Origin: a phage
Length of the DNA: 64,000 bases
Reading direction: 5' to 3' (one strand)
Sequence record: PZ534534.1
Numbering within the stretch: the stretch's first letter is position 1; the number at the start of each line of letters is the position of its first letter. The position numbers were made by a program, and so were the translations under genes. The notes beneath the pieces were generated by a model. That model was not told where the DNA came from. It was given only the letters and a program-made list of their open reading frames with translations, and did no database searches. This document shows positions 4,599-14,003 of this stretch, piece by piece.

Positions 4599-6089
4599 GT
4601 GGCTAAGTATGGATTGACAGAGGCTGGTTTCGTTATACCAACCCTAAATGACCTAATCGTTGAAACTAAGCAAAGCCTGATCCGTGCTTTTGGCGAAAAC
4701 TTCAACGTACAGAGTAACTCCGTTGCAGATAAGCTGACCACTATCTTCAACGAGCGAGAGTATCAACTTATTCTTATGGCAGCATCTGTATACGCATCAC
4801 AGACGCTGTATGGGGCAGAAGGTATTTACCTAGATGAGCTTCTTGGAAGACAAGGTATTTACCGAAGAGGCCGTTCTAAATCATCAGGTACCTGCCAGTT
4901 GACAATCAACACAACTGTGCCGTACAATATGATTTATGATTCCAAAACTTATACGCTGGACAGTGGCAACTTTGTTCTTAGCAACGATGTGCAAGTAGCA
5001 GGGAATCTTATTGCTCACAGAATAAATGCCCCAGACCTAAGGATTGGTAAATACAACTTTCAAATTACCAACCAGACAGATGGAAGTATCAAAACAAAAA
5101 GTCTGGTTTTAACAGATAAGTCTCTGGACTCTTCTGATCTGCCAAGCTTTTACGGAGAGATTAAGCAGTTCATTGTCGATAATACAACCCTGTTGAACGA
5201 CGATTTGATTCAGATAGATATGTTGACAGGAACGTTGTGGATAGGGTACAATTCGAATCTTGATCAAGTTGGACTTAATAGTAGAGTAGATTTCAGAGTA
5301 TCCCCGATTGTAGGGGAAAGAACTATCACACTGGATGTTATCGCTAACGAGGCGGGTGAGTTGTCAAGAGAGGCAGAAACCGTGACAACAATGTCACCTA
5401 CTCCCAGTGGATTTATCAAGCTTACCAACCGAGAAAGATTCAATGAGGGCAGGGATGTTGAGAAAGACTCAGAGTATCGCTTAAGAGCTTCCAGCACAAA
5501 ACAGTTAACATCTAAGGCTACCCGTCCTGCAATCCTTAGCGCTGTAAGCGAGGTGAAAGGTGTTGAGAAAGTGAGAGTGTTCTCCAATAACACCGATAAA
5601 ACTGATGCTAAAGGTATACCCCCTTACAAGTTCCAAGTGGTTGTGTTTGGTGGTGCAACGGAAGACATTTGCCAAGCACTTTACCAAACTATAGCCTGTA
5701 CGAACAGGACTTATGGTAATATTTTCTACGATGTCACTACATCTGACGGTCAAACTGAAAGAATTTATTACTCCAAGGCAAACACCTACCGCCTAGATGT
5801 AAGAATTACCTACTCCGGTGCTGCGCTTTCTACAACCGAAAAAGATGCCATTATAGAGGCTCTTTTGCAGGTTGTTAACGGACTGGATGTTGCAGATACG
5901 TTGTATAATATCCAATTGGTAGGTGCTGCATCTGCTGCTGTGTCAATAGGCAGATTTAATAGGCTGGTAATTCAAGTTAAATCCGTAGGAGCTTCTGATG
6001 AAGCTTACACTACAAACGATATTGTTGCGAACATGACCGAGGTGTTTGACCTCGACGAAAGTAATATAACTTTCCAACAAACTATTTAA
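4599..6089 (+). CDS. baseplate J-like tail protein
   Basis: GTG start with GGAGGAG RBS; N-terminal pattern (FNVQ, LDELL) recalls Baseplate_J family; 496 aa. Confidence 0.4.
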   Translation: MAKYGLTEAGFVIPTLNDLIVETKQSLIRAFGENFNVQSNSVADKLTTIFNEREYQLILMAASVYASQTLYGAEGIYLDELLGRQGIYRRGRSKSSGTCQLTINTTVPYNMIYDSKTYTLDSGNFVLSNDVQVAGNLIAHRINAPDLRIGKYNFQITNQTDGSIKTKSLVLTDKSLDSSDLPSFYGEIKQFIVDNTTLLNDDLIQIDMLTGTLWIGYNSNLDQVGLNSRVDFRVSPIVGERTITLDVIANEAGELSREAETVTTMSPTPSGFIKLTNRERFNEGRDVEKDSEYRLRASSTKQLTSKATRPAILSAVSEVKGVEKVRVFSNNTDKTDAKGIPPYKFQVVVFGGATEDICQALYQTIACTNRTYGNIFYDVTTSDGQTERIYYSKANTYRLDVRITYSGAALSTTEKDAIIEALLQVVNGLDVADTLYNIQLVGAASAAVSIGRFNRLVIQVKSVGASDEAYTTNDIVANMTEVFDLDESNITFQQTI

Positions 6090-6100
6090 GGCGGCGAGAT

Positions 6101-6787
6101 ATGGCAGAGATTAAGTCGGATGTTAACCACATCCACACTCTGCCAGATTTTGTTCAGGGAGGTCTTGACTACCTGCCTGGAGATTTTCTGGCTGAGAAGG
6201 TTAATTTAGTCACATTCTTAACCGTATACCTTAAAAGGTTGGAGGATGTTGATAAGATGCTGGTAGGTTTGGCTGAAGGAAGATTGCTTAACAATGCCAG
6301 CGGAAGATACCTTGACGAAGTTGGTAATCAACTTGGTATTCTTAGGAATGGACTTTCAGATGCTGATTTTCGTGCCACACTAATTATTCAGCAGGCCGCA
6401 GCATCAAGGGGCGGGACTCGCGAAGATGTCATCTCCACCTTGCGACAATTGTTCGGAAGAGACAATTTCGATACGTGGAAAGGAGACAACTTCAGGTTTG
6501 ACATAAATATTAGAAAAACTTGCTTTGACATATTGCAGTCTATCGATCAGATCTTAGATATGCTACCATTACCTTGTCATTTGCGTCTTACAGAATCGCA
6601 AGGGCAAGCTTTTGGTTTTGAAGGGGACTCTACAGCTCTTGGCTTCGGATCAGTGTGGGAAGAAAACCAATTCGGAGTTGGTGGGCTGGCTACTTTGCTG
6701 TATGTTCCTGACGTAAGACCTGATTGGGACACCACAACCATTTATTGTGAAAGTATTACAGTAAACGCAACTAGACAGGAGGGTTAA
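6101..6787 (+). CDS. tail protein (possible P2 gpI-like baseplate component)
   Basis: 228 aa ORF directly following baseplate-J-like gene; call by synteny only. Confidence 0.3.
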   Translation: MAEIKSDVNHIHTLPDFVQGGLDYLPGDFLAEKVNLVTFLTVYLKRLEDVDKMLVGLAEGRLLNNASGRYLDEVGNQLGILRNGLSDADFRATLIIQQAAASRGGTREDVISTLRQLFGRDNFDTWKGDNFRFDINIRKTCFDILQSIDQILDMLPLPCHLRLTESQGQAFGFEGDSTALGFGSVWEENQFGVGGLATLLYVPDVRPDWDTTTIYCESITVNATRQEG

Positions 6788-8859
6788 TGGCAACAGCTAT
6801 TTTTAAACCTTACCGTGATTACTCTACAATGGCTGCACGGTTTCATTACCGCACAGTTCAGGATACTGCCGTTCCTGGTAGGGATTATAATCATGTTGAG
6901 GGTGATGTAACTATCCCAATTGGGGCAACCAGTATTGAGATCCCAGTGGAAATTGTTGACAAATTACCCAACAGGTTGCCAAGAAGCTTCTTTATGGAGT
7001 TTTCATCAAAATCTCAAGGGGTGATGATTGGAACACAAAGGGCGAAATGTACAATAGTTTCAGATGAGAATCTTGACAGGATATCTTGGGATACTGTTGA
7101 GGAGAGAATGTTTCACCCAAGGTATTGGGTTACAACTACTCAGCAGACTGAAAGTACCTGTATTGTTGCAGATAACAACTGTTGTATTAACCGTTTAGTG
7201 TCAAGAACATATGGAGGTATGGCTGGGTGCATTTGGGAAACAGTTGACAAGTATGACCATTTCGGTATTGGGTTTGATGATCACTATGAGATGAGAAACA
7301 CCAAGCTTTGGTTCAGAATGTCAATAACCAATGCCAGCAACTTCTCCACCCCTGAAAAGATGATTATGACTGTAGACCTTGTTGATGGCACAATCATCTA
7401 TGTTCCTTTAGCTCAATATGCTGTCAGCATCTCAGAGGATAAGAATGTTGCAGAGATTCATATTGATTTCGAGGACTGCGTCGGGATGGATCAGAACAAC
7501 AACATGATGGGTGTTGATCCTCGACAGGTGAGAAGGATTTTAATACCGCTTATGCCTAAAGACTGGGTAAGTAATAGCACAGACCCGAGAACGGAAAATG
7601 TAGAGTGTGAGTTGCGCCTAGATCTGCTCCAGCCAGACACAGGCTGGAAAATGATGCAACTTAACAATATTCAGGTTAAAGAGCACGACGTTGGGATCTG
7701 CACCGCATATGACGATATGTGGAACGTATCTCCTTTAAGGGTGTTGAACAATATCAAGCGTCTGGGCTATACCGGAACCATAAACCATTATGTTGGTATG
7801 AGTCATTATTATGACTACACATGGTCAGGAACCCAATGGTCTATAAACAGAACAGGGGCGCTAAACGCTGCAGCTTATAAATGGCATGATGATTTTATGT
7901 ACAATGCCAAACGACATAACTTCGACGTTATGCAATCTGTAAGTTTTGAGCTTTTCAGCGATGCCTGCCCGTTGGAATGGACCCAAAGAGACTGGAACGA
8001 TAACTACGCTAAAACAGGGTATACACCCTGTAGCTACCTCCTGTCTCCAACCATTGAAGAGGGTATGAATTTCCTTACTGCAGTATTTAAGAATTTTGCA
8101 TCAGCCGCTATGAGAAACAACCTGCCAGTGATTATGCAGGTTGGTGAACCGTGGTGGTGGTACAATACCGATACTCGTAGACCTTGTATTTATGATTACC
8201 CTACAAAGCAGGCGTTTTATGATGAGACAGGTGAGTATGCATTAGATATTGGGACTATTGACGATCCTAAAACTGGCGGTGTTTACGACAAGTATGTAGC
8301 ATTTTGTCGTGGTAAGCTTGGCGCTCGTATTGCGGCCATTTCAAAGGCAATAAAGGCACACGCTGCATCAGCTCAGATGACAGCTCTGCTGTTTTTCCCA
8401 ACCATTATGGAAACAGAGCTTACGCAAAAGCTGAACCTTGCTGACCAATATAAAAAAGAAGCAGGTGCTCTTGATTTCTTCTGCACCGAGTGCTACGATT
8501 GGGTGATGCAGGGAGGTATTGAAAAGGCAAAAGAGTCTGTAAACATACCTATCGTTAAGTTAGGTTGGCAACCGTCTGAAATACAATACCTTGCAGGGTT
8601 CGTTCCTAGTAAAGAGCTTGCTCCGGTATATGGCTACGACCCAACCAGGAATTACCAAGAATTTTTATGGAGATGTATCTGCGGAAACATGGCAACCATA
8701 GAGTATAGATACCCTGAGGTAAAACAGTATGTGTGGGCATACCCGCAAGTAATGTCTGACAGCATCACTGTTACAGCCAGAGATTCTACCGTGCTTCATA
8801 TGGGGCAGGTTGCTCTGAAAGGGTATGTAGAAGATGTTGTCCCTCCAGACTTCTCATAA
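6787..8859 (+). CDS. tail-associated protein with N-terminal Calx-beta-like domain
   Basis: 690 aa; N-term GRDYNHVEGDVTIPIGATSIEIPVEIVD fits Calx-beta pattern; start overlaps upstream stop. Confidence 0.4.
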   Translation: MATAIFKPYRDYSTMAARFHYRTVQDTAVPGRDYNHVEGDVTIPIGATSIEIPVEIVDKLPNRLPRSFFMEFSSKSQGVMIGTQRAKCTIVSDENLDRISWDTVEERMFHPRYWVTTTQQTESTCIVADNNCCINRLVSRTYGGMAGCIWETVDKYDHFGIGFDDHYEMRNTKLWFRMSITNASNFSTPEKMIMTVDLVDGTIIYVPLAQYAVSISEDKNVAEIHIDFEDCVGMDQNNNMMGVDPRQVRRILIPLMPKDWVSNSTDPRTENVECELRLDLLQPDTGWKMMQLNNIQVKEHDVGICTAYDDMWNVSPLRVLNNIKRLGYTGTINHYVGMSHYYDYTWSGTQWSINRTGALNAAAYKWHDDFMYNAKRHNFDVMQSVSFELFSDACPLEWTQRDWNDNYAKTGYTPCSYLLSPTIEEGMNFLTAVFKNFASAAMRNNLPVIMQVGEPWWWYNTDTRRPCIYDYPTKQAFYDETGEYALDIGTIDDPKTGGVYDKYVAFCRGKLGARIAAISKAIKAHAASAQMTALLFFPTIMETELTQKLNLADQYKKEAGALDFFCTECYDWVMQGGIEKAKESVNIPIVKLGWQPSEIQYLAGFVPSKELAPVYGYDPTRNYQEFLWRCICGNMATIEYRYPEVKQYVWAYPQVMSDSITVTARDSTVLHMGQVALKGYVEDVVPPDFS

Positions 8860-8871
8860 TCAGGAGATAAA

Positions 8872-9912
8872 ATGTCAAAACCTAGTTTTCCATTAGAGAT
8901 TTGGGCAGAGGAGGATCAGGTTCTGCCTAACACCCACAGACAGAACAGGCTACGCCCGATTGATGATTTGTGGAGAAAAGGTTGGGATCTTGGTCAAAAG
9001 CCATCCTGTGAAGAACTTAACTATATTTTCAATATGCTCGGAACTTGGGCAAAATACATTGCTGACGAGCAGATCCCCGCTCAAGAAGGCCGTTATCTGG
9101 TACGTGATAATAACTTGAGCGATCTTTTGAACATCCCTGTTGCCCGTAGAAACCTTGGGATTATCACTAAGGAAGAGGCAGACGCCAGGTATGTAAAAGT
9201 TACAGGTGATACAATGACAGGCCCCTTGGGGTTGCAACGTATCAACTTTAAAGCTGCCGAGACAGATAAGGCTTGGATAGAGACAACTATTGGCCCAGAT
9301 AAGACAACTCTCGACTTTGGGTTAAGTGATAATACCGGGTCGTTTGATGATGGTGGTACATCTACAGTAGATGCGTTTCGTTGGAGATTCCAGCCAACTC
9401 AGCCGGATATTAATCCAGAGTTCACTTTGATGTACCTTAACGCGATCACGGCTAATCGTGCGCTGTTGAAAGTGGTAGGCAATGTTGAAGTTGTCGATAA
9501 CATGAGGTGCAATAACCTTACTATCAGCAATACAGCAACATTCACCAACTGTAATGTGGCTAGTCAGTTGACGGCTGGGTCAGTATATGTTAATGGTGGT
9601 GCAAGTTGTGACAGTATGGTTGTAAGAAGCCAGCACTGTGTTGTCGGTAACAGAAATGTGGTGCGCTCCGTGAATGGAGTGACGGCTAACGGTAACGGTG
9701 ATGTAACGATCACTATCCCGCAGACAGGTGTGCAAGACATCAGAATCGGTGCAAGACTTGTGGACGGCGTTTCTGAATCTCCAATCCGCAACGGCTACGT
9801 TGTCACAGGCTGGCATTTCGGTGACAAAAAAGAGATGCGTGGTTCAACCTACTGGGCAGGACCTTTACAAAAACTTGTAAATGGTCAATGGATCACTGTT
9901 AATTATGCATAG
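8872..9912 (+). CDS. tail fiber protein (paralog A)
   Basis: 346 aa; N-term FPLEIWAEEDQVL and C-term QKLVNGQWITVNYA shared with 10924-11970 paralog. Confidence 0.5.
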   Translation: MSKPSFPLEIWAEEDQVLPNTHRQNRLRPIDDLWRKGWDLGQKPSCEELNYIFNMLGTWAKYIADEQIPAQEGRYLVRDNNLSDLLNIPVARRNLGIITKEEADARYVKVTGDTMTGPLGLQRINFKAAETDKAWIETTIGPDKTTLDFGLSDNTGSFDDGGTSTVDAFRWRFQPTQPDINPEFTLMYLNAITANRALLKVVGNVEVVDNMRCNNLTISNTATFTNCNVASQLTAGSVYVNGGASCDSMVVRSQHCVVGNRNVVRSVNGVTANGNGDVTITIPQTGVQDIRIGARLVDGVSESPIRNGYVVTGWHFGDKKEMRGSTYWAGPLQKLVNGQWITVNYA

Positions 9913-9926
9913 ATCGGAGGACTAGC

Positions 9927-10511
9927 ATGAAAATACTTCAAGAGTTTAAACTTTACCAACCGGGATCTGGCGAATACTACTCCAACAAGGAAACCAAGGA
10001 GCTGACCCCTCAAGAGGTCGAGGATTACACCGCATACACTGGGTATTTTTTACGTAATGATGATGGTGATTGGTATGTGCAGTCACGAACATTACGACAA
10101 GAAAATCCAGGGTGTATCTTCCTACTTGTTGACGAGAAGGGAATTCTTAAGACATCTACAGAAGAACCTGATGCCTTATGGCCTGCTCCAGGTCTTCGTG
10201 TGGTTATCGCCAAAAAAGAAGAGGTACCAGAAAACATTATGCTTCACCACGACGCTTTGCGTTTAGTTGGTGATGAATTTGTCACAGACAATGAATTCTT
10301 TGTTCAACAGGCAGAGGGTGTCATAGAGACAGAACTTGCTTGGGCTACTGCTAGAATTGGTGCCTATCAAGACATGATTGACCTTGAATATGATCTTACT
10401 GATGACCAGAAACGTAACATCAGAGATTTGAAAATGTACAGGGTAAAACTTCTTGAAATAGATACATCTAAAGCCCCTGACATTTTCTTCCCGGAGCGAC
10501 CTACCCTCTAA
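9927..10511 (+). CDS. hypothetical protein (possible tail fiber assembly factor)
   Basis: 194 aa ORF with GGAGGA RBS between the two tail fiber paralogs. Confidence 0.3.
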   Translation: MKILQEFKLYQPGSGEYYSNKETKELTPQEVEDYTAYTGYFLRNDDGDWYVQSRTLRQENPGCIFLLVDEKGILKTSTEEPDALWPAPGLRVVIAKKEEVPENIMLHHDALRLVGDEFVTDNEFFVQQAEGVIETELAWATARIGAYQDMIDLEYDLTDDQKRNIRDLKMYRVKLLEIDTSKAPDIFFPERPTL

Positions 10512-10522
10512 GAGGAGGTGTT

Positions 10523-10837
10523 GTGGAGTTGGATTTGGCGGCATTGTACGGTATCTGCATGGGTACCGTTGTCCCGATCTGTGTATGGGCTTTCAACCAG
10601 TGGCACACCAAATGGAAAGGCATTTCCAAGAGGTTGGATGAGCTGGAGAAAGACCTCATCTTAGTGAAAAACAGTATGGTTACAAAAGATAGACTTGATT
10701 CCGTTATCGAGACTCGGTTAAGCAAGCTAGAGGCCGATATTAACGACCTTAAGCAGGATGTCAGGACAGATGTCTCCGGCATCCGAGCTGATGTACAAAA
10801 GATTTTGCACATGCTCGTAGAGCATAGTAAAAGGTAA
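10523..10837 (+). CDS. small membrane-anchored coiled-coil protein
   Basis: GTG start after AGAGGAGG RBS; N-terminal hydrophobic segment then heptad-rich region. Confidence 0.3.
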   Translation: MELDLAALYGICMGTVVPICVWAFNQWHTKWKGISKRLDELEKDLILVKNSMVTKDRLDSVIETRLSKLEADINDLKQDVRTDVSGIRADVQKILHMLVEHSKR

Positions 10838-10846
10838 ACAAAGGTC

Positions 10847-10880
10847 AGAACGGAAAGGACTCCGTTCTTGCATTTTGTTC
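10847..10880 (+). terminator. putative rho-independent terminator
   Basis: AGAACGGA/TCCGTTCT stem with 6-nt loop followed by TGCATTTTGTT. Confidence 0.4.
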
Positions 10881-10923
10881 TCTAAAGTGTTAAAATAGTC
10901 CTAAGGAATTTTCTCAGGAGAAC

Positions 10924-11970
10924 GTGATGACTAAACCAGTTATCCCTCTTGATATTTGGGCCAATCAGGATGTTGTGCTTGAAAATACGGGAGAGTTGAA
11001 TAAATCTCAACCAAAAAAAGAAGAGAGATTGAAAGGTTGGGATATGACACAAAGAATGGCATGTGAAGTTGTTAACTTTGAACTTCACATGCTTTCTGCG
11101 TGGTTGAAGCATTTAACAGAAGATGTTGTCCCAGGATGGGATAATAGATTCTTAAGGGTCACTAATAATCTAGCAGACGTTCCAGACAAAGCTGCTGCAC
11201 GTCAAGTTCTCAATGTATACTCACCTGAAGAAATGGACGATCTATATGTTGACAAGTCTGGAGACATAATGACTCAGACTCAAACTTTAGGTCTTCAAAG
11301 AATCGAGTTTGCATCTGCGTCAACAGACAGTGCGGCAATATATACCACCATAACTCCAGACAAGACGACGATGGATTTCTGGATTATGGACAACATCGGT
11401 GGTGCTGACGGCACAGACCTTGATGATCCTTCTCACCAAATAGATGGGTTCCGTTGGAGATTTCAACCTTCTGGTGGGCAGCCTGTGTTTTCAGCTATGA
11501 AGCTCAATGCTATAACTGCCAACCGTGCAAGACTGGCTATCCAAGGAAATCTTGAATGCAACGATGCAAAAAGTTCCTCTGCAAATGCCAATGCGGTCAC
11601 GATACCAAGAGCCACTGTTAATGGACAACAATCCTGCGGAAGCGCTCAAATAGGTGGAAGAGTTGATTGTAACGATGAAACCGTCAGGGGCCAATATGCA
11701 ACAGTTGGTGGAAGAAACGTGGTCCGCAGGGTAAATGGTAACGGCGCAGACAGTAGCGGTAACCTTACTATCCCTATGCCTAGCAGAGGGGTTGATGATG
11801 TAAGGATAGCAAACCGTTTTAAAACCACCTACAGAGAGTCAAGAGTCTACCCTGGACATGTGATGTGCTCTGGTAACTACGCTTATAAACACCCTTATCA
11901 AGGTGATTACTGGACAGGTGCTATCCAAAAACTTGTAAATGGTCAATGGATCACTATATCTTATGCTTAA
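10924..11970 (+). CDS. tail fiber protein (paralog B)
   Basis: 348 aa; paralog of 8872-9912; last 30 coding nt before the final codons identical to paralog A. Confidence 0.5.
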   Translation: MMTKPVIPLDIWANQDVVLENTGELNKSQPKKEERLKGWDMTQRMACEVVNFELHMLSAWLKHLTEDVVPGWDNRFLRVTNNLADVPDKAAARQVLNVYSPEEMDDLYVDKSGDIMTQTQTLGLQRIEFASASTDSAAIYTTITPDKTTMDFWIMDNIGGADGTDLDDPSHQIDGFRWRFQPSGGQPVFSAMKLNAITANRARLAIQGNLECNDAKSSSANANAVTIPRATVNGQQSCGSAQIGGRVDCNDETVRGQYATVGGRNVVRRVNGNGADSSGNLTIPMPSRGVDDVRIANRFKTTYRESRVYPGHVMCSGNYAYKHPYQGDYWTGAIQKLVNGQWITISYA

Positions 11971-11981
11971 AAAGAGGGTAA

Positions 11982-12248
11982 ATGAAACTAACTCAGTTTT
12001 TATGGGGACTGGTTGCGGCATCTGATGACCCTACGAAAGTGTCCCAATCTAAGCTATGGTCGAACATAGGCATGGCGGTGATGACTGGGGGGTTTATTCA
12101 TATGGGGGATAATGATACGCTTCCTGAATGGTATGCGTGGATATACGCGCCTTCAGTAGCTTGCCCCCAGCTTATTAGCAAATTCATCTCGCTCCGGTGG
12201 GGTTGCCAGCACCCTGACCACGTTAAAAACGAAGAGCAAAAAGCTTAA
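11982..12248 (+). CDS. hypothetical protein
   Basis: 88 aa ORF with GAGGG RBS between fiber genes. Confidence 0.3.
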   Translation: MKLTQFLWGLVAASDDPTKVSQSKLWSNIGMAVMTGGFIHMGDNDTLPEWYAWIYAPSVACPQLISKFISLRWGCQHPDHVKNEEQKA

Positions 12249-12257
12249 GGAGAAATC

Positions 12258-14003
12258 ATGGCGCAAGACATGACAAGCTTTGAGCAGGCGGTAGATCAAG
12301 TAATTGTTGATTCTGAACGTTTGCACCTGATTGTCAACGGTAACGCTGTGGATGAAGTTGTCGTAGAGGATGGGACCACCATCCCTACGGTACGAAAAGC
12401 CATGCTTGACACCCTTTATTTTAAAACGCCACCGATCCCTTGGGCGTATGGTGCATCCACAACAGTTTTTAACCAGCTGTACGAGTTTAAAGGGGACACA
12501 GGCCCTCAGTGGTGGTACGCTCCCGCAGCATCAAAATCTAACCCGGTTAGAATGCCAGCAGATCCTTCACAATCTCCAAACTGGAGATTATATACCGATT
12601 CTGCAGTAATGGCAAAATACTACGCAAAACTTAACAGTCCGAGGTTCGAAGGTGACCCGCGAGTACCTACGCCTCCAATGGACGACAAATCCGAGTCTAT
12701 AGCAAACACAGAGTTTGTTGTTGACTATGTGGATAGCATATTTGAAGCCATGGAGGGAATGAAAGTTACTGTAGGATCTTTGGTGGTAAAAGGTCTTACA
12801 GAACTTGCTAACACTATAGTTGGTGGCACACTCACCTTACATGGGCCTGTTAATGGAGCAGATTCTACTGCACGCTTCAGGAACCTAATCCTCACGGCAA
12901 ATACTTCTACACTTACTTTTGCGTGGAGTGATCCTAAGCATGCAGACTGGAGAAGCACAGAGCTGCAACCTCATGAAGTGTCCACCCACAGGGTTATAGC
13001 TGACACTATAACTTCTGGGAAACCAGTGGCTAATAATAACGATGTGCATTTTGATGGTCTAGGTAATAACTTTTTTGACTACGTGTACATTCGTGGTAAT
13101 GCCATGAAGGCAGCAACCGAACCGACATTGCAGGTAGATGGAACCACCAGGGTTAAGAACCTTGAGGTGACAGGCACTGTTACAGGGATAACCTACTCTG
13201 TCGATGGCACCATGATTTACCCTAGCTATATTGAAAGCACGGGGGACGCATTAATAAATGGTGATTTAGAAGTTGGCGGATCTGTAGTTATTCGAGGTAC
13301 AGCCTCTATCCAAAACATAGCTCTGAATACCCTAAGAGTCAATGAGCGTGCAACTTTTGAAGGGGAAGGGCTTACAGCCAACAAAGGTGTAATTACCGAG
13401 CTGACAACCACTACTTTAACTGCAACAACTGCAAACTCTGAAAACTGCAACGTTACCAGAAACTTGCAGGTAAATGGAGATGTTAGTTTAAACGCAGCAG
13501 GGACGGGCACCACCTACCTTCACAACCTTGAAATATCCGGCACAGTGACTGGGTGGCTGCCAGACTTCTCTAATGTCAACTTTGTTTGTAATGGCATTAA
13601 CTCCAGTGGCAAGATAACCACCTCTCAAGAAATTGAGGCGGGTAAAACCATTACTGCCCCTACTTTCCACGCAGGAAAGGTAGATTTTGATTTAGAGGAG
13701 GTTGACGCGTCCAGTGGGACATGGACACCTAACGGGCAGGCCAGTATGTATGTTGTCCACGCGAAAGGGGATTTTACAATAGGACAATGGCCTGGTACAT
13801 CAGCGGAAGATAAACCTTATCCATTCACTGCGGTTATCTATGTCATTCAGGATGCTGTAGGTCACAACGTGACTTTGCACGATAAGTATGCTATCCTGTC
13901 GGCAACGCCTGTTATTAATAACAAGGCTAATAGTGTTACCTTGCTGCAATTAACATATTGTGGTGTTGGTGATATCGTAGACGTAGTAATTGCACAACGT
14001 TAA
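12258..14003 (+). CDS. tail fiber / tailspike-like protein
   Basis: 581 aa; short G/T/V-rich repeats (GTVTGI, GTLTLHGPV) typical of fibrous or beta-helical tail proteins. Confidence 0.45.
   Translation: MAQDMTSFEQAVDQVIVDSERLHLIVNGNAVDEVVVEDGTTIPTVRKAMLDTLYFKTPPIPWAYGASTTVFNQLYEFKGDTGPQWWYAPAASKSNPVRMPADPSQSPNWRLYTDSAVMAKYYAKLNSPRFEGDPRVPTPPMDDKSESIANTEFVVDYVDSIFEAMEGMKVTVGSLVVKGLTELANTIVGGTLTLHGPVNGADSTARFRNLILTANTSTLTFAWSDPKHADWRSTELQPHEVSTHRVIADTITSGKPVANNNDVHFDGLGNNFFDYVYIRGNAMKAATEPTLQVDGTTRVKNLEVTGTVTGITYSVDGTMIYPSYIESTGDALINGDLEVGGSVVIRGTASIQNIALNTLRVNERATFEGEGLTANKGVITELTTTTLTATTANSENCNVTRNLQVNGDVSLNAAGTGTTYLHNLEISGTVTGWLPDFSNVNFVCNGINSSGKITTSQEIEAGKTITAPTFHAGKVDFDLEEVDASSGTWTPNGQASMYVVHAKGDFTIGQWPGTSAEDKPYPFTAVIYVIQDAVGHNVTLHDKYAILSATPVINNKANSVTLLQLTYCGVGDIVDVVIAQR

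Follow-up and report, generated by a model that had tools for sequence, protein, structure and literature searches.

rV5-like phages (genus Vequintavirus) are widely used as candidates for therapy and biocontrol. Kropinski et al. (2013) described their short tail fibres in rV5 as the proteins gp30 and gp33, which are 42.3% identical, occur together with gp32 in the virion proteome and were suggested to recognise two lipopolysaccharide (LPS) chemotypes (PMC3606486). The BASEL study (Maffei et al. 2021) likewise reported two paralogous short tail fibres and a chaperone, homologous to GpS and GpU of phage Mu (PMC8594841, S5D Fig), and, describing the paralogs as 'very similar', argued for one shared terminal receptor (PMC8594841). 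In this study, we analysed the same locus in a stretch of phage DNA of 64,000 nucleotides (nt) (sequence record PZ534534.1; hereafter the window, to which all coordinates refer). Here two short tail fibre genes on the plus strand, A (8872-9912) and B (10927-11970), share an exact direct repeat of 30 nt (the 30-mer) close to their 3' ends. The two genes encode proteins of 346 and 347 amino acids and are the orthologs of rV5 gp33 and gp30, respectively; the published features of the rV5 pair (lengths of 346 and 347 amino acids, 42-43% identity, a chaperone gene in between, presence in the virion and homology to Mu GpS/GpU) all match. The published descriptions of the rV5-type pair considered here make no mention of the identical 30-mer, of gene conversion between the paralogs or of the reversed pattern that is reported below for uncultured sister clades. 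From the comparisons that follow, we consider it probable that the 30-bp identity is the footprint of recurrent short-tract gene conversion between tandem paralogs, the two copies being 2,058 bp apart.

Over positions 8500-12300 the window is 99.9% identical to Escherichia phage DrSchubert (Bas50) and at least 90% identical to 117 GenBank phage records, every one of which is rV5-like; with regard to rV5-type genomes, the short tail fibre locus is 98.9-99.9% identical. On the basis of this sequence identity the window phage is assigned to Vequintavirus. The 30-mer (CAAAAACTTGTAAATGGTCAATGGATCACT) occupies positions 9868-9897 in A and 11926-11955 in B (a spacing of 2058 nt), is in frame in both genes, encodes the peptide QKLVNGQWIT and lies at the core of 62 nt with 84% identity. 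An initial annotation, made from the letters of the window alone, had correctly described the repeat as exact, although it placed the second copy one position too far downstream (11927-11956). The identity stands out against the divergence of the two genes, which have 43% protein identity (E = 2e-94) and 52% DNA identity overall. Outside the last 14 codons, just 32% of the degenerate codons with a conserved amino acid are identical between A and B, and the synonymous sites are therefore essentially saturated. The probability that ten codons would match by independent draws from the codon usage of the window is 1.0e-4, while a 30-nt run was reached in 0 of 20,000 shuffles of codon columns and in 67 of 20,000 shuffles that preserved the amino acids. 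The identity of the 30-mer thus exceeds chance (p of about 1e-4 to 3e-3). A search of the window with up to three mismatches found no third copy; neither the window nor the Vequintavirus records listed yielded a complementary partner of the 30-mer, and in a blastn search with the 30-mer each of these listed records was matched in at most two places.

The distribution of identity along the proteins was at variance with the earlier description of two fibres conserved at both termini and diverged centrally. By residues of A, the amino acid identity is 43% at positions 1-60 (which equals the gene average), 32% at 61-110, 54% at 111-215, 36% at 216-290, 29% at 291-332 and 86% at 333-346. The best long conserved block is consequently central (residues 111-215), and only the extreme C-terminus, i.e. 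the last 14 residues, stands out.

The decisive comparison was provided by a lineage that was found through a protein search with B, to which its homolog is 78% identical. This lineage, clade W, comprises four independent metagenome contigs (L048-L051) of 67-126 kb with the same gene order, and its nucleotide identity to the window is 75% for A, 70% for B and 76% for the chaperone gene; the window and the Vequintavirus type are referred to as V. In L048 and L050 the 30-mers read CAAAAACTGGTCAATGGTCAGTGGATCAC[G/T], the A copy being CAAAAACTGGTCAATGGTCAGTGGATCACG and the B copy ending in ...ACT, while A of L049 and L051 has a T at position 9. Both copies in L048/L050 share three synonymous changes relative to the window (G9, C12 and G21), with a single site at which they are not the same; of these changes, the copies of L049/L051 have C12 and G21 in common, and they differ at two sites. 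Within a genome, the 30-mers of A and B differ at 0 sites in V and at one to two sites in W, as opposed to three to four sites between the orthologs of V and W. Where the sites of the quartet formed by A and B of V and W were sorted according to whether they grouped the sequences by gene or by genome, the 30-mer displayed 0 sites by gene and 3 by genome. The reverse applied to the 135 nt upstream (42 by gene, 0 by genome) and to the last four codons (4 by gene, 0 by genome). Across the whole gene, 203 sites grouped by gene, 24 by genome and 29 in the third pattern, the latter representing the level of homoplasy or noise.

As a control, the comparison was restricted to codons for which all four genes (A and B of V and W) have the same amino acid, and was assessed by Fisher test. 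The paralogs were identical in both genomes at eight of the nine codons in the 30-mer versus 13 of 114 elsewhere (p = 1.6e-6), and covariation by genome was seen at three of nine codons versus five of 114 elsewhere (p = 0.013). The V-W pattern is the signature of concerted evolution confined to the 30-mer. Gene conversion, which had been put forward in the initial annotation, is upheld by the finding that A and B of the same genome vary together within the 30-mer, whereas the sequences on either side are inherited by gene. By-genome sites (three, versus one by gene, in a 30-nt bin) also form a second, small cluster at nt 819-825 of the V-W codon alignment, corresponding to about residues 270-275 of A (~9680-9700); this variable region is poorly aligned, and the cluster could represent either another micro-conversion or an alignment artefact.

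A mirror image of this pattern was obtained in three further clades, which came from scanning IMG/VR and metagenomes with a degenerate pattern and from subsequent protein look-ups. Clades X (L017-L021, L033 and L038), Y (L052) and Z (L053) have the layout of the window (A, chaperone, 104-amino-acid open reading frame (ORF), B), and the uncultured rV5-like lineages W, X, Y and Z together carry the two-fibre locus on metagenome contigs of 37-140 kb. Megablast of the A-to-B region of the clade X contig L014 (equivalent to L017) against 50,697 GenBank phage records returned no match. In clades X, Y and Z, the 30-mers of A and B differ at 7-9 of the 30 positions and these differences are inherited by gene, so that these clades, as judged from their sequences, show how the conserved peptide is encoded where homogenisation has not taken place. 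Conversely, the ~135 nt upstream of the 30-mer, which encode the tip domain, are 72-84% identical between the paralogs versus 53-55% in the rest of the genes. In the quartet of X1 and Z, the tip has 16 sites by genome and 2 by gene, while the 30-mer has 3 by gene and 0 by genome. Since the tip groups by genome and is similar between the paralogs, B of these clades represents an A-type tip on a B-type N-terminus and shaft. The 3' breakpoint of this chimeric B is at or within the first 9 nt of the 30-mer.

The paralog tip identity ranges from 70-80% in L009 up to 95% in L014, and the latter genome (L017/L014) carries a discernible patch. Its A copy shows the B state at every site of a stretch covering about nt 148-206 of the last 285, while the A copies of three sister genomes (L018, L019 and L021) keep A-specific states there; three differences at 207-209 bound the patch, and the similarity between the two copies ends within the first nine bases of the 30-mer. 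This patch is, on the evidence of these alignments, a discrete and recent B-to-A conversion. It is well supported that the 5' edge of the 30-mer acts as a repeated conversion boundary, which would have been reached from opposite sides in V/W and in X/Y/Z. The comparison with related phages thus yielded the chimeric fibres for which the initial annotation had suggested a search, namely B of X, Y and Z. Its proposal of a recombination joint for the swapping of modules was borne out with respect to the breakpoint at the 30-mer; however, the exchange is one between paralogs and renders their tips alike, and no case came to light in which different phages had exchanged sequence with a breakpoint in the 30-mer. 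Indeed, all chimeras found were between paralogs, with no donor from another phage having matching nucleotides among the records listed from the 50,697-record search.

Variation of the 30-mer was also assessed within Vequintavirus, where A and B copies were compared in 16 genomes and third-position polymorphism in 14. The two copies differ at 0 to 4 positions: no differences were seen in the rV5-type genomes sampled, two to four (including a non-synonymous L-to-F change in B) in the group of SYGMH1, HMD-6, NHEP1, BP9 and EI-SP-GF, while phage Aya has the same T-to-C change in both copies. Third positions of the 30-mer are polymorphic at 3 of 10 sites in A versus 53% gene-wide (p = 0.20), and at 2 of 10 in B versus 52% (p = 0.053). 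The polymorphism of the 30-mer is slightly low, yet not significantly below that of the genes, and the 30-mer is not a frozen element. Uniform divergence across the segment in related phages, which the initial annotation had taken to speak against its reading, was hence seen in part, as the copies of SYGMH1, HMD-6, NHEP1 and BP9 have diverged from each other and orthologs gain synonymous changes. Deletion variants arising through the direct repeat, in which the chaperone gene and B would be lost, were also considered and rejected: protein searches with A and with B each returned ~116-117 records of Vequintavirus level, and the listed complete genomes carry both genes.

The proposed explanation is that conversion here takes the form of non-reciprocal homologous recombination between the two tandem short tail fibre paralogs. 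Protein-level purifying selection would keep the ten codons for QKLVNGQWIT encoding the same peptide in both genes. This peptide is presumed to be the conserved last structural element (probably the last strand) of a Mu-GpS-type tip, a role assigned by sequence homology to Mu GpS alone, and would probably be needed for trimer folding and maybe also for docking of the single tail fibre assembly (TFA) chaperone. Without conversion, an island of about 70-77% nucleotide similarity would remain (as in X, Y and Z), in which copying could start and finish, and each copying event would reset the synonymous sites to identity and in this way favour the next. In V, spread of the tract would be limited upstream by the divergent tips (about 37-43% nucleotide identity) and downstream by the final four codons, which are particular to each paralog (VNYA in A, ISYA in B), such that the limits of homology together with selection on the tips would set the tract boundaries. 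In X, Y and Z, the same process would have homogenised the whole tip domain and stopped at the 30-mer. With regard to direction, the A 30-mer of V has 2-3 differences from B of clade X and 6-7 from A of clade X, and a B-to-A conversion in the Vequintavirus ancestor is weakly supported.

Several points weigh against this explanation. The covariation consists of three synonymous sites in one sister clade, with modest p-values (0.004-0.013), and for clades W, X, Y and Z the sequences are assemblies (metagenome or Logan), not isolates. The direction is derived from 10 nearly saturated synonymous sites. Furthermore, a tract of 30 nt (at most about 36) amid poorly similar DNA is short for classical conversion of the RecA type. 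The differences at two to four sites between the copies in SYGMH1, HMD-6, NHEP1, BP9 and EI-SP-GF also count here and, given that they occur in part of the genus, conversion would be occasional and not continuous. Finally, the pooled third-position polymorphism of the 30-mer (5 of 20 versus about 52%) is somewhat low, which could reflect a weak constraint at the nucleotide level instead of, or besides, homogenisation.

It must be considered whether the identical codons are simply a coincidence, or a relic of duplication, preserved by purifying selection on the protein. Strong conservation of the peptide extends across all clades to distant homologs, and several of its codons are common ones; nevertheless, this alternative is highly improbable in view of the codon-usage probability (1e-4) and of the few amino-acid-preserving shuffles that reach the run (67 of 20,000), and because the synonymous sites elsewhere are saturated (32% identical codons). 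In addition, the near-identity of the copies in clade W with a different sequence is predicted by neither a relic nor a coincidence, and the unhomogenised coding of the same peptide in X, Y and Z differs at 7-9 sites. A different source of identity would be exchange between phages, whereby each 3' end was taken separately from co-infecting phages at the terminal motif and a common outside donor was involved. Many tip types of unrelated phages (Rosemountvirus, phi92-like phages, Mu and, with an identical peptide, the 42-kb contig L012) share this motif, and in T-even phages a mosaic make-up of tail fibres that arises through conserved motifs is well documented. L012, however, encodes that peptide with nucleotide differences at 9 of 30 positions, and among the records listed from the search of 50,697 phage records, those that matched the 30-mer over nearly its full length were all genomes of Vequintavirus type. 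Moreover, two parallel acquisitions of the same 30 nt would be needed in each of V and W, and the flanks are strictly orthologous (42 sites by gene versus 0 by genome, and 4 versus 0), making such an origin unlikely.

The low pooled polymorphism and the covariation of the copies between V and W bear on a further alternative, i.e. that the 30-mer is an element acting at the nucleotide level, such as a DNA or RNA signal (the target of a regulatory RNA, an antisense pairing site or a recombination site) that is identical in both genes and co-evolves with a common partner, since co-evolution with a shared partner could mimic the observed pattern. A promoter-like match on the minus strand (11982-11953), which would read antisense across copy 2, may also be cited in its favour. 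However, the promoter-like sites in the region number 7 versus 5.9 expected from shuffles, and the scan found none on the plus strand that overlaps the 30-mer; a promoter, terminator or RNA signal was on these grounds rejected as the main explanation. Synonymous variants, and even the L-to-F change in B, are tolerated within the genus (0-4 differences), neither a third nor a complementary copy was found in the window or among the Vequintavirus records listed, and X, Y and Z have the same layout and peptide despite 7-9 differences that are stably inherited by gene. Because variants are tolerated and because both a plus-strand promoter-like site and a third copy are lacking, a fixed nucleotide signal is improbable, and we give this alternative slightly less credence than exchange between phages.

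Recurrent gene conversion between the paralogs thus remains the preferred explanation, and it may be extended in a more speculative direction. The 30-mer and the upstream motif V.D(I/V)R.G might mark a maintained cassette border, namely a homology arm that is kept similar by selection or by self-reinforcing conversion, although we regard this as a rather unlikely idea. If it were true, the tip would be copied both between the two fibres and between co-infecting relatives, and a lineage would move between a state with two different tips (V and W) and one with two identical tips (X, Y and Z) as its hosts change. A variant that is less likely still is one in which a single trans-acting or antisense RNA recognises both 30-mers and so co-regulates the two fibres.

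The domain composition of the two fibres was examined by sequence matches to solved structures. Residues 1-108 of A (8872-9195) match residues 1-111 of chain c of the phiTE short tail fibre (9CUY; E = 1.4e-19) and are predicted to form an N-terminal baseplate-attachment domain, while residues 1-83 of B match residues 1-83 of 9CUY (E = 1.1e-9). In phiTE, residues 3-92 of the short tail fibre constitute a trimeric joint that binds the baseplate wedge (PMC11972413). At the other end, residues 286-343 of A align to Mu GpS 440-501 (5YVQ), the E-value being 1.7e-6 with the full-length protein and 3e-4 with the fragment, and the last ~58 residues also match an S/S' chimera (8JU3), indicating that the segment 9739-9867 probably encodes a distal tip domain of the Mu-GpS type. 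The corresponding segment of B (11797-11925) is a divergent tip domain with 29% amino acid and about 37% nucleotide identity to that of A; the last 96 amino acids of B had no sequence match in the PDB, B keeping the flanking motifs only. A-type tips also occur in the fibres of Av-05, of the phi92-like phage PaulScherrer and of Rosemountvirus BP63. In contrast, the B-type tip was found only in Vequintavirus and clade W, both by tblastn against the 50,697 phage records and in a search of 5.8 billion proteins; import of this tip type from outside was accordingly dismissed, neither search having provided evidence for it. All of the tip types examined, those of Mu S and S' among them, terminate in P(I/L)Q.x(V/I)NGxW, and the tips start after V.D(I/V)R.G; the two motifs bracket at least four tip types (A, B, TH18/EC152 and L012).

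These observations have a bearing on receptor recognition. Contrary to the description of the paralogs as very similar, the tips are the least similar part of the two proteins. Given that they share 29% of their amino acids and that the A tip matches Mu GpS while the B tip matches no solved structure, dual receptor specificity, as proposed in the initial annotation, is plausible in the window phage and, more generally, in V and W. It seems unlikely in X, Y and Z, where the tips are alike. The chaperone of Mu, to which the TFA gene of this locus is related, attaches to the distal part of the fibre and is retained in the virion (PMC9608196).

The initial annotation had recognised both fibre ORFs, giving the second as 10924-11970. 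While both genes exist, B is better assigned to the annotated ATG at 10927, which is better spaced from the AGGAGA ribosome-binding site than the alternative GTG at 10924. In DrSchubert both genes are annotated as 'short tail fiber protein' (bas50_0035, which is 100% identical to A, and bas50_0038 for B), with a 'tail fiber chaperone' and a hypothetical protein between them. The corresponding genes of the window, all on the plus strand, are the TFA chaperone gene at 9927-10511 (ortholog of rV5 gp32; Pfam Caudo_TAP PF02413, E = 1e-11) and an ORF of 104 amino acids at 10523-10837 (ortholog of rV5 gp31; hypothetical), whose position is conserved not only in clades W, X, Y and Z but also in the single-copy genera. 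The chaperone gene is the only TFA gene among nine ORFs of the locus (4599-14003) scanned against Pfam and is directly downstream of A. B is instead followed by an ORF of 88 amino acids (11982-12248) without a Pfam match, which is the ortholog of rV5 gp29 (rv5_gp029, annotated as a membrane protein) and not a chaperone gene. Just upstream of B, a consensus scan identified a terminator-like hairpin at 10847-10868 (an 8-pair stem followed by a T-rich tail; a pattern match only), followed at 10888-10897 by TGTTAAAATA, a putative element that resembles the upstream motif of rV5 late genes, TggTAaAAtA, with one mismatch (PMC3606486). B may be transcribed separately from the unit of A, chaperone and gp31 ortholog.

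In the single-fibre genera of the Vequintavirinae (represented by Av-05, TH18 and EC152; L043, L044 and L045), the gene order is fibre, chaperone, 104-amino-acid ORF, 157-amino-acid ORF, an ORF of ~87 amino acids and the next fibre. Gene B of Vequintavirus occupies the exact place of the 157-amino-acid ORF, from which it would appear that the second fibre replaced or displaced this ORF. Additionally, the fibre gene directly upstream of A (6787-8859) has non-contractile tail sheath domains of the N4 gp65 type (PF23844 and PF23845; E = 4e-80 for the TIM barrel) and a Calx-beta domain, and fits the ECA/NGR-binding deacetylase fibre that has been published for these phages. The 15 nt AGAAGATGTTGTCCC, which encode EDVVP, form an exact direct repeat at 8829-8843, at the very end of this N4-gp65-like fibre gene, and at 11118-11132 inside B; by a rough estimate about 0.006 such matches would be expected by chance in 3.6 kb, and B of clade W has EEVVP where that of the window has EDVVP. 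Among the related database entries, gene B of Escherichia phage pangalan (L029) measures 1035 nt as against 1044 nt, three codons having been lost in frame; this genome is otherwise of the rV5 type. In Escherichia phage vB_Eco_Alma (L030, OV101294), gene A, the chaperone gene and the next fibre gene are each split into two coding sequences, probably as a result of frameshift sequencing errors and not of biology. Among the GenBank records listed, about 16-21 (MG0656xx) bear the name 'Campylobacter phage', some with the flag UNVERIFIED; over the locus they have ~99% identity to rV5-like phages of E. coli, and their attribution to a Campylobacter host looks doubtful.

The significance of these results should be viewed against what was already established. 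The paralog pair, the chaperone, the homology to Mu and the idea of dual LPS recognition are published, and gene conversion and mosaicism of tail fibres have long been recognised; what appears to be new is small and consists of a 30-nt tract of conversion between the rV5-type paralogs, along with the reverse pattern in uncultured sister lineages. No general concept is changed, as the process would be an ordinary route of phage tail fibre evolution. The results nonetheless show that the two short tail fibres of rV5-like phages evolve non-independently: short patches pass from one to the other by copying, as has the entire receptor-binding tip in sister lineages. As conversion can reset the identity of the tip, the phylogeny of a fibre gene fails to predict its tip type. 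With a view to engineering of fibres, the conserved terminal peptide together with VxD(I/V)R may mark natural junctions that tolerate replacement of the tip while compatibility with the single chaperone is kept.

Phage Mu alternates between two tips by Gin-mediated inversion of its G segment, which lies between inverted repeats. The present locus resembles that of Mu (GpS/GpS' and GpU/GpU'; 5YVQ, 8JU3) in that the A tip aligns to GpS, in that a Caudo_TAP gene follows the fibre gene, and in the terminal motif, both Mu variants ending in P(I/V)Q..(I/V)NG.W; furthermore, the chaperone stays in the virion of Mu (PMC9608196) and gp32 is likewise found in virions of rV5 (PMC3606486). It differs in that the two fibres are separate, complete genes on the same strand with a direct repeat and no invertase gene in the locus, in that one chaperone serves two fibres, and in that the B tip is not detectably Mu-like by sequence. 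A Mu-like inversion switch or shufflon was thus rejected, since the repeat is direct and on the same strand, and since the ORFs of the locus encode structural proteins, the chaperone and small unknown proteins without a recombinase domain. The only inverted repeats in the locus are weak ones of 14-18 nt with 78-93% complementarity.

In the gp37/gp38 adhesins of T-even phages, recombination reportedly occurs at conserved motifs that flank hypervariable segments (Tetart, Desplats and Krisch 1998). The likeness is that short conserved coding motifs bracket a variable receptor-binding segment and coincide with the breakpoints of the exchanged segments. In the present case, however, it is the paralogs within one genome that become alike, whereas the T-even exchange concerns alleles of different phages and generates new specificities, and in the window only the 3' motif is identical at the nucleotide level. 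Concerted evolution by gene conversion is known from duplicated bacterial genes, e.g. tufA and tufB of Salmonella and the rRNA operons. As in these systems, paralogs within a genome are closer than orthologs between lineages over a delimited tract, the phylogeny of which is incongruent with that of its flanks; here, in contrast, the tract does not extend over whole genes but is tiny (30 nt) and set within strongly diverged genes of 52% nucleotide identity.

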